A DNA stretch of 64,000 nucleotides from Escherichia coli (GTDB taxonomy: Bacteria; Pseudomonadota; Gammaproteobacteria; Enterobacterales; Enterobacteriaceae): NCBI RefSeq assembly GCF_017348835.2, contig NZ_CP071375.1. One strand, given 5' to 3'. The translations under genes were made by a program, and so were the position numbers. Positions 13,414 to 57,750 of this stretch are shown here, in pieces (the stretch's first letter is position 1; each line of letters begins with the position of its first letter). The notes beneath the pieces were generated by a model that worked only from the letters and a program-made list of their open reading frames with translations, searched no databases and was not told the DNA's origin.

Positions 13414-13562
13414 GACTCCTCCAGTGAGAAAATAGAGCAAAAAGATAAGTATAGATGCTGGAGGAGGGGCGATTTTAAATGAGAGGAATCTGGTGTGCCT
13501 CCCTTTCGGGTGAAAGGGAGGAAGGGATATTAAGCAGGTTGCTGACAACGTGCGGGCTTTTT

Positions 13563-13662
13563 TGCCGGATGCGGCGTGAACGCCTTATCCGTCCTACAAG
13601 TTCATGCAATTTTAATAAGTTGCCAGATATCCTGTAGGCCTGATAAGCGTAGCGCATCAGGC
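13563..13662. repeat. REP/BIME cluster between glnQ and ybiO
   Basis: gccggatgcggcgtgaacgccttatccg and gtaggcctgataagcgtagcgcatcaggc REP palindromes. Confidence 0.65.
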
Positions 13663-23894: not shown

Positions 23895-25487
23895 GTGTTA
23901 GTTTCCAGTAACGTCACCATGCAGTTCGGCAGTAAGCCGTTGTTTGAAAACATTTCCGTCAAATTTGGCGGCGGCAACCGTTACGGCCTGATTGGCGCGA
24001 ACGGTAGTGGTAAATCCACCTTTATGAAGATCCTCGGCGGCGACTTAGAGCCGACGTTGGGTAACGTTTCCCTCGATCCCAACGAGCGCATTGGTAAGCT
24101 GCGTCAGGATCAGTTTGCCTTTGAAGAGTTCACTGTGCTGGATACGGTGATCATGGGGCATAAAGAGTTGTGGGAAGTGAAGCAGGAGCGTGACCGCATC
24201 TATGCTTTGCCGGAAATGAGTGAAGAAGACGGCTATAAAGTGGCCGATCTGGAAGTTAAATACGGCGAAATGGACGGTTACTCTGCGGAAGCTCGCGCCG
24301 GTGAATTGTTGCTTGGCGTGGGAATTCCAGTGGAACAGCACTACGGCCCGATGAGTGAAGTTGCTCCTGGCTGGAAGCTGCGTGTGCTGCTGGCGCAGGC
24401 GCTGTTTGCTGATCCGGATATTCTCCTGCTCGACGAACCGACCAACAACCTCGACATCGACACCATTCGCTGGCTGGAACAGGTGCTGAACGAGCGCGAC
24501 AGCACCATGATCATCATCTCGCACGACCGTCACTTCCTTAACATGGTCTGTACCCACATGGCGGATCTGGATTACGGCGAGCTGCGCGTTTATCCGGGTA
24601 ACTACGATGAGTACATGACGGCGGCGACCCAGGCGCGTGAACGTCTGCTGGCCGATAACGCCAAGAAGAAAGCGCAGATTGCTGAGTTGCAATCTTTCGT
24701 TAGCCGCTTTAGCGCCAACGCCTCGAAATCTCGCCAGGCAACTTCGCGCGCGCGCCAGATTGATAAAATCAAACTGGAAGAGGTGAAAGCCTCCAGCCGT
24801 CAGAACCCGTTCATCCGTTTTGAACAGGATAAGAAACTGTTCCGTAACGCGCTGGAAGTGGAAGGTCTGACCAAAGGGTTTGATAACGGTCCGCTGTTTA
24901 AAAATCTCAACCTGCTGCTGGAAGTGGGTGAAAAACTGGCGGTACTGGGTACCAACGGCGTCGGTAAATCAACGCTGCTGAAAACGCTGGTGGGCGATCT
25001 GCAACCGGACAGCGGCACCGTAAAATGGTCTGAGAACGCGCGCATTGGTTACTATGCTCAGGACCACGAATATGAGTTTGAAAATGATCTGACCGTGTTC
25101 GAATGGATGAGCCAGTGGAAGCAGGAAGGCGATGACGAGCAGGCGGTACGCAGCATTCTCGGTCGTTTGCTGTTCAGCCAGGACGACATCAAAAAGCCAG
25201 CTAAAGTGCTTTCCGGTGGGGAAAAAGGGCGGATGCTGTTTGGTAAGTTAATGATGCAGAAGCCGAACATTCTGATCATGGACGAACCGACCAACCACCT
25301 GGATATGGAATCCATTGAGTCGCTGAACATGGCACTGGAACTGTATCAGGGCACGCTGATCTTTGTTTCACACGACCGTGAGTTCGTAAGCTCCCTGGCG
25401 ACCCGCATTCTGGAAATCACCCCGGAACGCGTGATCGACTTTAGCGGTAATTACGAAGATTACCTGCGTAGTAAAGGGATCGAGTAA
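23895..25487 (+). CDS. ybiT: ABC-F family ATPase YbiT
   Basis: 530-aa ORF with two ABC cassettes (two Walker A, two LSGGE signatures), no membrane domain. Confidence 0.9.
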
Positions 25488-25525: not shown

Positions 25526-25547
25526 GGCTGATGACAAATGCAAAATA

Positions 25548-25648
25548 GCCTGATGCGCTACGCTTATCAGGCCTACGCAGTACCTGCAATATATTGAATC
25601 TGCAGGACTTTGTAGGCCGGATAAGGCGTTAACGCCGCATCAGGCATT
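25548..25648. repeat. REP/BIME cluster between ybiT and ybiU
   Basis: cctgatgcgctacgcttatcaggcctac and gtaggccggataaggcgttaacgccgcatcaggc REP units. Confidence 0.65.
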
Positions 25649-25727
25649 AACAAAGCGCATTTGTCAGCAATCTGAGTAACGTCGAATCGATTTTCTTAAT
25701 CCCACATCAATTCACTTCCATTAATTC

Positions 25728-38898: not shown

Positions 38899-39819
38899 AT
38901 GCTTAATTACGTTATCAAACGCTTACTGGGGTTGATTCCAACGCTGTTTATCGTCTCGGTGCTGGTGTTTTTATTTGTGCATATGCTGCCCGGCGATCCG
39001 GCGCGATTGATTGCCGGGCCCGAAGCTGATGCGCAGGTTATAGAACTGGTGCGTCAGCAGCTGGGGTTGGATCAGCCGCTGTATCACCAGTTCTGGCACT
39101 ATATCAGCAATGCTGTGCAGGGGGATTTTGGCCTGTCGATGGTGTCGCGTCGTCCGGTTGCCGATGAGATTGCCAGCCGCTTTATGCCAACGCTGTGGCT
39201 GACCATAACCAGTATGGTCTGGGCGGTGATATTTGGTATGGCGGCGGGAATTATCGCCGCCGTCTGGCGTAATCGTTGGCCGGATCGATTGAGTATGACC
39301 ATTGCGGTGTCGGGGATCTCGTTTCCGGCATTTGCTCTGGGGATGCTTTTAATTCAGGTATTCTCCGTTGAACTGGGCTGGCTGCCTACCGTGGGAGCAG
39401 ACAGTTGGCAGCACTACATTTTACCCTCCCTGACGCTCGGCGCGGCAGTGGCAGCCGTGATGGCGCGCTTTACCCGTGCGTCATTTGTCGACGTTTTAAG
39501 CGAAGATTATATGCGTACCGCGAGGGCGAAAGGGGTGAGCGAAACCTGGGTTGTCCTCAAACACGGGCTACGCAACGCGATGATCCCGGTAGTGACCATG
39601 ATGGGCTTACAGTTTGGCTTTTTGCTCGGTGGTTCTATCGTGGTGGAGAAAGTTTTCAACTGGCCCGGACTTGGACGCTTACTCGTTGGCTCCGTAGAAA
39701 TGCGCGATTACCCGGTGATTCAGGCGGAAATTCTGCTTTTCTCGCTGGAATTTATTCTTATCAACTTAGTGGTGGATGTGCTTTACGCCGCCATTAACCC
39801 GGCTATCAGGTACAAGTAA
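38899..39819 (+). CDS. gsiC: Glutathione ABC importer permease GsiC
   Basis: 306-aa membrane ORF, DppB/OppB-like. Confidence 0.92.
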
Positions 39820-55353: not shown

Positions 55354-55890
55354 ATGCGTCGCGCTAACGATCCGCAACGGCGAGAAAAAATTATCCAGGC
55401 CACGCTGGAGGCGGTGAAACTTTACGGAATACATGCTGTTACGCACCGCAAAATTGCTACCCTTGCCGGGGTACCGTTGGGATCGATGACCTACTATTTT
55501 TCAGGAATTGATGAGTTGTTGCTGGAGGCGTTCAGCAGTTTTACTGAGATCATGTCCCGGCAATATCAGGCATTTTTTAGCGATGTTAGTGATGCTCAAG
55601 GCGCATGCCAGGCTATCACCGATATGATCTACAGCTCACAGGTGGCAACGCCGGATAACATGGAGCTGATGTACCAGCTCTACGCGCTGGCTAGCCGAAA
55701 ACCGCTATTAAAAACGGTAATGCAAAACTGGATGCAGCGTAGTCAGCAAACGCTCGAACAATGGTTTGAACCCGGAACCGCCCGCGCGCTTGATGCGTTT
55801 ATTGAGGGGATGACGCTGCATTTTGTCACCGACCGTAAGCCGCTATCGCGCGAGGAGATTTTGAGGATGGTTGAGAGGGTTGCTGGGTAG
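55354..55890 (+). CDS. rcdA: TetR-family transcriptional regulator RcdA (YbjK)
   Basis: ORF 55324..55890 trimmed to [15 protein letters not shown] start (178 aa). Confidence 0.88.
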
Positions 55891-55907
55891 TAGATAAATT
55901 TTAGGCA

Positions 55908-55988
55908 ACAAAAAACCCACCAACCTTGAACCGAAATGGCGGGGTTGATGGGCTCCACAAAATGGGGACATCAAAGAAAAGCAGTGGC
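55908..55988 (-). ncRNA. rybB: Small RNA RybB (sigma-E-dependent, Hfq-binding)
   Basis: Minus strand reads gccactgcttttctttgatgtccccattttgtggagcccatcaaccccgccatttcggttcaaggttggtgggtttttt, matching RybB from memory, including terminator hairpin and U-tail. Confidence 0.9.
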
Positions 55989-56024
55989 ACTAATTAAGAC
56001 TGATGCCCTGCGGAAAAGTTCTGC
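55989..56024 (-). promoter_or_regulatory. Sigma-E promoter of rybB
   Basis: Minus-strand GAACTT (-35) about 16 bp upstream of a TCTTAA -10-like element, immediately 5' of the RybB +1. Confidence 0.55.
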
Positions 56025-56064
56025 GGTTGTGCAAAAAAATTTCATTTTCAGGGCAACTTCAGTT

Positions 56065-57750
56065 TTATCCTAATCCAGGCCATACCATGACGATGATTGT
56101 CCCTGCCAGCGTCAGCAGAACGTTGGCGATTGCGTAGGTGCCCGCATAGCCCAGCGCCGGGATGTTACTGCGAGCTGTATCACTGATGATCTCCATTGCC
56201 GGCGCGCAGGTGCGTGCGCCCATCATTGCGCCGAACAACAGTGCGCGGTTCATTCGCAATACATAAGCACCGAACAAGAAACAGATAACCACGGGCACCA
56301 GACTGACAATCAATCCGGCAATCAACATTTGACCGCCAATCGCGCCCAGACCGTTATTAATACCGCTACCGGCGCTCAGACCAACGCCTGCCATAAACAC
56401 CATTAAGCCGAACTCTTTCACCATGCTTAATGCACCCTGCGGAATGTAACCGAAGGTCGGGTGGTTAGCACGCATAAAGCCCAGCATAATTCCGGCGAAT
56501 AACAACCCGGCAGCGTTCCCCATGCCGAAACTGAATGTGCTGAACTGGAATGTGATCATCCCGATCATCAGCCCAATAACAAAGAAGGCGCAGAATGCCA
56601 GCAGGTCAGTGACCTGGCTGTGAATCGAGATAAAGCCGATGCGATCGGCGATAGTTTTTACGCGGCGGGCATCGCCGCTGACTTGTAAAACGTCACCTTT
56701 GTTAAGCACGACGTTGTCATCTATCGGCATCTCAATCTGGCTACGAATGACGCGGTTAAGGAAGCAACCGTGATCGGTCAACTTCAGTTGTGCGAGACGT
56801 TTACCTACAGCGTTATGGTTTTTAACGACCACTTCTTCAGTGACGATACGCATGTCGAGAAGGTCACGATCGAAAACTTCTTTACCGTTACGGAAGCTGG
56901 GATCGAGTCGGGCATGGGCGTCGGGATAGCCTACCAACGCTATTTCATCGCCCATTTGTAGCACGGCATCACCGTCTGGATTTGCCAGAATCCCGTTACG
57001 TCGAATACGTTCAATGTAGCAGCCGGTTTGTCGATAAATACCCAGTTCACGCAGATTTTTGCCGTCGGTCCAGGCCACCAGCTCCGGGCCGACGCGATAG
57101 GCGCGGATCACCGGTAAATAAACCTTACGGTTGGCATCAGTGTCCAGGCCACGTTCGCGGGCTATTTGCTGGGCGCTGGTCTGTAAGTCCTGATGCTGCA
57201 ATTTCGGCAAGTAACGCGCACCAACAATCAAACTCACCAGACCGATTAAATAGGTTAAGGCATATCCGAGGCTCAGATTATCCAGTGCCAGTGAGAGCTG
57301 CCTGCTTTCCATACCGGAATGACGCAGTGTATCGCCAGCACCGACCAGAACCGGTGTCGACGTCATAGAGCCTGCTAACATACCGGCCGTCAGGCCAATA
57401 TCCCAGCCAAACAGCTTACCTAACCCTAAGGCGATCACCAGCGCACTGCCAACCATCACCAGTGCTAACATTAGGTAATTTTTCCCATCGCGAAAAAAAA
57501 TGGAAAAAAAGTTCGGTCCGGCTTCAACCCCAACACAGAAAATAAACAGCATAAAGCCAAGATTAAGCGCATCGGTGTTAATGCTGAAATGTTGTTGGCC
57601 TAATAACAGCGATACGACTAAAACGCCAATGGAATTACCCAGTTGGATCGAACCAAGTCGTAACTTTCCGAGACATAGCCCAAGCGCGAGGACCACAAAT
57701 AATAACAGAATGTAATTCCCATTTAACAATTCGGCGACGTTTATATTCAC
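56065..57750 (-). CDS. ybjL: AAE-family putative transporter YbjL
   Basis: 561-aa ORF with two membrane domains flanking TrkA-C-like regions. Confidence 0.88.

Follow-up and report, generated by a model that had tools for sequence, protein, structure and literature searches.

The interval between rcdA and ybjL in the window, that is, the whole 64-kb stretch of E. coli DNA analysed here, raises the question of whether it holds a regulatory RNA gene with a promoter of its own, or whether its features are better read as the 3' end of a neighbouring message, a phage attachment site or a short coding region. The first-pass annotation had placed here, on the minus strand, a transcript of roughly 80 nt that it identified as RybB. 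This RNA is among the best-studied small RNAs of enterobacteria and has a central place in the envelope stress response, where it lets the activator sigma-E repress the synthesis of outer-membrane proteins (OMPs). Our analysis indicates that the element is almost certainly the chromosomal rybB gene of E. coli with its own sigma-E promoter, encoding an Hfq-binding small RNA that represses OMPs. No feature of the sequence speaks against this reading. Published work already describes the gene with its promoter and mechanism, and also the use of rybB for prophage attachment. We infer sigma-E dependence, Hfq binding, target repression and expression in this strain from what has been reported for K-12, whose promoter is identical and whose RNA is nearly so.

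Identity and genomic context of rybB

An Rfam scan of the whole 64-kb window, the check that had been proposed for this locus, returned a full-length match to the RybB family (RF00110) at 55907-55985 on the minus strand, covering model positions 1-79 of 79 with a score of 104.1 bits, far over the gathering threshold of 40 (E 2.5e-20; posterior probability 1.00). The model begins at RNA +4 and extends 3 nt beyond the U-tail; the gene itself occupies 55910-55988, minus strand, with its 5' end (GCCACTGCTTTTCTTTGATGTCCCC...) starting at the +1 G at 55988 and its last nucleotide, the final U of the U6 tail, at 55910. The predicted unit of 79 nt agrees with the length and strand of the transcript claimed earlier. 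In the curated record of E. coli K-12 MG1655, rybB (b4417) is likewise a 79-nt ncRNA in the rcdA/ybjL interval, on the strand of ybjL, and the window RNA is identical to it at 78 of 79 aligned positions; the sole difference is RNA position 69 (55920, minus strand), a G in the window and an A in K-12. Family match and K-12 identity together bear out the naming of the element as RybB, and its location between rcdA and ybjL is that of the annotated b4417. K-12 RybB shares with the window its length, 5' seed, terminator architecture, promoter and genomic neighbours, and differs from it by the one RNA base and by four flanking positions within the attachment core described below.

The gene is nearly universal in the species: rybB together with its promoter was found in 5418 of 5426 complete E. 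coli genomes, and eight of the 5426 had no rybB match at all. The 801-nt stretch around rybB is 100% identical in E. coli PE164 and F2_81. A divergent copy occurs in E. coli AR_0017 (NZ_CP024886.1, 159372-159441), 87% identical over 70 aligned nucleotides of the 79-nt query, which suggests a deletion of roughly 9 nt in that sequence. Apparent plasmid-borne copies (7 places; 16 PLSDB records) were rejected as such, most of them being either records of 0.7-5.4 Mb or pieces of chromosome that bear a plasmid label; 14 of the 16 PLSDB records are typed as non-mobilizable.

Upstream of rybB and on the same strand lies ybjL (56065-57750, minus), an aspartate:alanine antiporter gene assigned from the list of open reading frames and the annotation of an identical strain and of K-12; its TAA stop (56067-56065) precedes the rybB +1 by 76 nt. 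Downstream and convergent lies rcdA (55354-55890, plus), annotated as a TetR-family regulator, with its stop codon 19 nt past the RybB 3' end. Among the matches listed, 90 of 110 species carry a ybjL homologue immediately upstream of rybB and only 16 of 106 have rcdA in convergent orientation within 500 nt, so it is downstream that the neighbourhood varies. In E. coli at least, this variability can be ascribed to the prophage attachment site located there.

The expectation that an annotation based on open reading frames would miss the gene was borne out in the strains considered, as the automatic PGAP RefSeq annotation of the E. coli genomes listed carries no rybB feature, which appears in the curated K-12 record only. 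Because the NCBI annotation of strains identical to the window places nothing between rcdA and ybjL, recognising rybB matters for annotation quality, while adding no new biology.

A conserved sigma-E promoter

On the minus strand, the promoter comprises GAACTT (56021-56016), a 16-nt spacer, TCTTA (55999-55995) with a G directly before it at 56000, a 6-nt discriminator and the +1 G at 55988. The -35 element AGAACTTT thus extends over 56015-56022 (-34 to -27) and the -10 element GTCTTA over 55995-56000 (-12 to -7), and further upstream an A3-T7 tract at 56033-56042 (-54 to -45) is a likely UP element, a role proposed on the conservation of its T-tract. The heptamer AGAACTT (56022-56016) matches the sigma-E sequence GGAACTT at six of seven positions, and the published sigma-E motifs, -35 GGAACTTTT and -10 GTCAAA, are near-perfect at rybB (PMC1804206). 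The region from -70 to -1 is identical to K-12 at all 70 positions.

Homologues were collected from one-genome-per-species contigs with an exact 20-mer (RNA +4 to +23), a search that yielded at least 120 loci, all from Enterobacterales or related MAGs, 115 of them with enough flanking sequence. The promoter alignment, anchored on the RNA start and gap-free on its upstream side, comprised 116 sequences, the window and 115 other species among the matches listed. In these 116 sequences from the matches listed, G-33, A-32, A-31, C-30, T-29, T-28 and T-27 are kept in 97-100%, with GAACTT conserved in 99-100% and the next T in 97%, so that GAACTTT stands at a fixed distance from +1. G-12, T-11, C-10, A-7, T-1 and G+1 to C+3 are invariant, positions -9 and -8 vary, and both the spacer between the -35 and -10 elements and the region from -44 to -36 hold almost no information. 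Within the T-tract, -48 to -45 are conserved in 82-90% and -50/-49 in 61-63% of these sequences, and the flanks of the tract are unconserved. This conservation does not reflect redundancy of the sample, since 110 distinct sequences from -50 to -1 occur among the 116. The invariance of +4 to +23 was fixed by the search pattern and is therefore ascertainment, not evidence; the invariant positions -1 to +3 lie outside the forced pattern. The combination of conserved -35 and -10 elements with a free spacer is, as judged from the alignment, the phylogenetic footprint of a sigma-E promoter.

Across the 64-kb window, rybB is the only site of the composite pattern GAACTT-N14-16-GTCNNA; shuffled sequences gave a mean of 0.21 matches, with at least one match in 21 of 100 shuffles, and because of this expectation the count by itself is weak evidence. 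What places the promoter far beyond chance is its precise spacing to the RNA 5' end together with the conservation in 115 species, among the matches listed. Promoter fusions of rybB and micA drop to background in an rpoE deletion (PMC1804206), and sigma-E dependence of transcription has been published for the rybB promoter of both K-12 and Salmonella (PMC1804206, PMC3326320). The rybB promoter was part of the set of 60 used to model sigma-E core promoters and UP elements, where it is termed a strong competitor (PMC3326320), and another study counts it with the strongest of the sigma-E regulon (PMC4102768). The earlier assignment of GAACTT as a sigma-E -35 element is thus upheld by identity to K-12 from -70 to -1, by fit to the published motifs and by conservation across species. 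A sigma-70 promoter scanner, which is of the wrong sigma type for this promoter, did not report it at rybB. NsrR was considered as a direct repressor of the rybB promoter and rejected, as the 2025 study concerned itself reports no robust promoter binding (PMC12249550).

Structure of the terminator

The Rfam consensus structure and a minimum free energy (MFE) fold both place a Rho-independent terminator hairpin at 55914-55954 (minus), with a 12-bp stem in which 55954-55943 pairs with 55925-55914 and which encloses 17 nt, including a small inner helix. Six U residues (55910-55915, minus), read directly from the sequence, form the tail; this would be the Hfq-binding 3' end, as presumed from the literature, and it is kept as T5-T7 among homologues. 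The 79-nt RNA folds at -24.6 kcal/mol (z = -2.2 against shuffles), leaving the 5' part largely unpaired. Across 56 distinct homologous sequences among the matches listed, 97.2% of the cells in the stem are paired and 7 of the 12 stem pairs show compensatory changes, for example A-U to G-C and C-G to U-A. None of 500 shuffles reached the observed values, and sliding the partner strand by 1-3 columns reduced pairing to 15-50%. A few Yersinia rows are misaligned through a one-base bulge, an effect that can only reduce the covariation figures. The terminal hairpin and U-tail proposed in the first-pass annotation therefore correspond to a 12-bp stem backed by covariation and followed by six U at 55915-55910.

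A simple terminator scanner did not report the RybB hairpin, because its rule permits loops of 3-8 nt and the stem encloses 17 nt; this result is uninformative for rybB. On the plus strand the same hairpin has no U-run after it, and it would make a poor terminator for the convergent rcdA.

Seed region and proposed mechanism of action

The first 16 nucleotides of the RNA, GCCACUGCUUUUCUUU (55973-55988, minus), are identical to K-12 and make up the 5' seed region. They include the seed CRCUGCUUUU common to sigma-E-dependent small RNAs, the 3' part of RybB serving as the scaffold for Hfq binding and termination (PMC6694218). In the MFE fold, nt 2-5 lie in a 4-bp helix and nt 6-16 are unpaired, leaving the seed largely single-stranded. 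The seed was folded against the leaders of K-12 target mRNAs, with shuffled seeds and the starts of 56 open reading frames of the window as controls. In the ompC 5'UTR, GCCACUGC pairs with GCAGUGGC over 8 bp without a mismatch, at a site that precedes the K-12 ompC start codon by about 50 nt (-17.4 kcal/mol; p 0.012 against shuffled seeds), and with codons 2-7 of K-12 ompW the seed pairs at -15.5 kcal/mol (p 0.034 against shuffled seeds). The background starts (n=56) average -11.6 with a standard deviation of 2.5, placing ompC and ompW in the tail; one background site reaches -17.8. By these predicted duplexes, the seed is complementary to the omp mRNAs ompC and ompW. A seed target inside the window was also sought; the lone non-self match to the 8-mer GCAGTGGC, at 39445 deep in gsiC, was rejected as chance, given an expectation of about 2 in 128 kb.

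These features would be consistent with the following course of regulation. When unfolded outer-membrane proteins build up, the anti-sigma factor RseA would be degraded and sigma-E freed, and the freed sigma-E would steer RNA polymerase to the promoter at 56022-55995 (AGAACTTT, the 16-nt spacer, TCTTA and the upstream A/T tract). Transcription would start at the G at 55988 and stop at the hairpin and U6 tail at 55910, giving a 79-nt RNA that, going by the literature, would bind Hfq. Its single-stranded 5' end, GCCACUGCUUUUCUUU, could then pair with many OMP mRNAs, such as ompC and ompW, and the pairing would be expected to block translation and hasten mRNA decay. The resulting fall in envelope load would exert negative feedback on sigma-E. 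Hfq binding and Hfq-dependent repression of OMP mRNAs are known for RybB of K-12 and Salmonella (PMC1804206, PMC6694218).

A prophage attachment site at the 3' end

The 3' end of rybB overlaps an attachment core of P2/Fels-2-like (Felsduovirus) prophages, ATAAATTTTAGGCAACAAAAAACCCAC (55894-55920, plus), recognised from a repeat in E. coli PA45B and from the attP of phage KP12. The core of 27 bp consists of the last 11 nt of rybB and 16 nt downstream. Felsduovirus prophages are known to insert within rybB, hotspot #29 of the E. coli pan-genome (PMC10121019), and in Klebsiella a Fels-2-like island lies precisely within rybB, at Kpn38RybB (PMC4048246). In E. coli, the 801-nt region is split between 55890 and 55894/5 in approximately 1128 of 5422 genomes, or about a fifth. 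PA45B carries a 34-kb P2/Fels-2-like prophage between rcdA and rybB, with the integrase adjoining rcdA and ogr adjoining rybB, and bounded by the 27-bp direct repeat ATAAATTTCAGGCAACAAAAAACCCAT, which the window core matches at 25 of 27 positions. The same core is found as attP between ogr and int in Klebsiella phage KP12. As at the attachment sites in tRNA and tmRNA genes, the core overlaps the 3' end of an RNA gene, and the rybB-side junction of the PA45B lysogen restores an intact rybB because the phage supplies a replacement 3' end. In contrast to such occupied sites, the one in the window is empty: the gap between rcdA and rybB is 19 nt, with no insertion. A likeness of the attachment region to T4-like phages (25-nt match, E 0.4) was dismissed as a chance resemblance to their terminators.

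Every local difference between the window and K-12 falls inside the 27-bp core, four of them in the 3' flank at 55894-55909 and one, 55920, at the core edge. The window core is a mosaic, with A at position 5 and GC at positions 13-14 as in PA45B, T at position 9 as in K-12, and C at position 27 (55920), which occurs in neither. It is conceivable, although we consider it rather unlikely, that Fels-2/P2-like prophages have integrated and excised here repeatedly and that these 3'-end strain differences are the trace they left. If true, phages would remodel the terminator and 3' flank of a core stress small RNA, which could tune its termination, stability or Hfq binding.

Alternative explanations

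The RybB-like sequence might instead be the 3' end and terminator of the ybjL mRNA, with the small RNA arising by processing of read-through transcripts and having no promoter of its own. In 90 of 110 species (among the matches listed) ybjL immediately precedes rybB on its strand, which would fit this, as would a terminator scan of the interval between the ybjL stop at 56065 and rybB (55989-56064), which found no terminator-like site there; ybjL transcripts thus probably cross the rybB promoter and end at the rybB terminator. Selection on a ybjL 3'UTR alone, however, leaves the promoter footprint unexplained, in which the -35 and -10 elements are invariant at a fixed distance from T-1/G+1 while the spacer drifts (116 sequences, among the matches listed). 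The published promoter fusions are strictly rpoE dependent (PMC1804206), and rybB is kept without an upstream ybjL in about 20 species among the matches listed, all of which makes an origin from ybjL read-through highly improbable. It is less probable still, and extremely so, that the conservation reflects nothing more than a prophage attachment site and a terminator shared by convergent genes, with no regulatory RNA involved. The core at 55894-55920 does overlap the RNA 3' end, and P2/Fels-2-like prophages use it in about one in five E. coli genomes, but it spans only the last 11 nt of the RNA, and the strongest conservation lies well outside it, in the 5' 24 nt and the promoter. Moreover, the attachment site is polymorphic and the seed invariant, and the Rfam model matches from end to end. 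Least probable of all, to the point of being negligible, is a small protein encoded by the region. The mechanical list of open reading frames does contain 55743-55958 (minus), 55843-55974 (minus) and 55936-56073 (plus), but the homologue alignment has 1- and 2-nt indels within the RNA (columns 26-27 and the loop are examples) that would shift any frame, and variation tracks base-pair covariation, not codon periodicity. The two minus-strand frames also pass through the terminator into rcdA antisense, across a downstream flank that is unconserved between species.

Under the favoured reading, an sRNA gene with its own sigma-E promoter, rybB could still be impaired in this strain if the A-to-G change at 55920 left it with a weaker terminator or Hfq-binding module. 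Position 55920 belongs to the 3' arm of the terminator stem, where the change turns a U-A pair into a U-G wobble, and the predicted hairpin is 0.6 kcal/mol weaker than that of K-12 (-20.5 for the window allele vs -21.1 kcal/mol). Nevertheless, U-G still pairs, and it occupies the 55920 pair in 3 of the 56 aligned sequences among the matches listed, the window included. The RybB allele of the window is found unchanged in 738 of 5420 E. coli records, or about 14% of complete records; the G at 55920 is for this reason a common minority allele and not a lesion, and a loss of function is very unlikely.

Related sigma-E-dependent small RNAs

The micA gene lies between luxS and gshA and micL inside cutC, loci other than that of rybB, and the sequences and seeds of both RNAs are unrelated to RybB; neither family had an Rfam match in the 64-kb window. 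In their logic they resemble RybB, each being a short RNA that binds Hfq, is transcribed from a strong sigma-E promoter and represses abundant envelope proteins (PMC4102768; see also PMC1851643). MicV and VrrA of Vibrio cholerae have the CRCUGCUUUU seed, sigma-E control and OMP repression in common with RybB, and E. coli RybB can replace them (PMC6694218). They differ in belonging to other RNA families with other scaffolds, whereas the element of the window is the enterobacterial RybB itself.

Other features of the window

The catecholate siderophore receptor gene fiu (5744-9464) is interrupted by IS4, leaving fragments at 5744-7732 and 9159-9464 on either side of a transposase gene at approximately 7747-9075 on the minus strand; the whole stretch is 100% identical to PE164. 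A role of fiu as a RybB target did not turn up in the literature searched, and we make no claim on it. At approximately 23914-23926, in the ybiT/ldtB interval, PE164 has an extra 8.9-kb island that the window lacks, encoding two recombinase-family proteins, an HNH endonuclease, a DNA methyltransferase and an HTH protein; the alignments on its two sides share 13 nt, suggestive of a short target repeat. A match to naRNA4 at 4083-4153 on the minus strand (RF02564, 72.3 bits), whose consensus resembles a REP-type palindrome pair, probably represents an ordinary repeat of the REP/BIME kind. A pair of intergenic repeats, each about 130 nt long, lies at 25545-25674 and 13535-13662, and the two are roughly 81% alike; the former is built of REP-like palindromes and includes an Rfam match to ES036 at 25569-25611 (41.6 bits, just over threshold).
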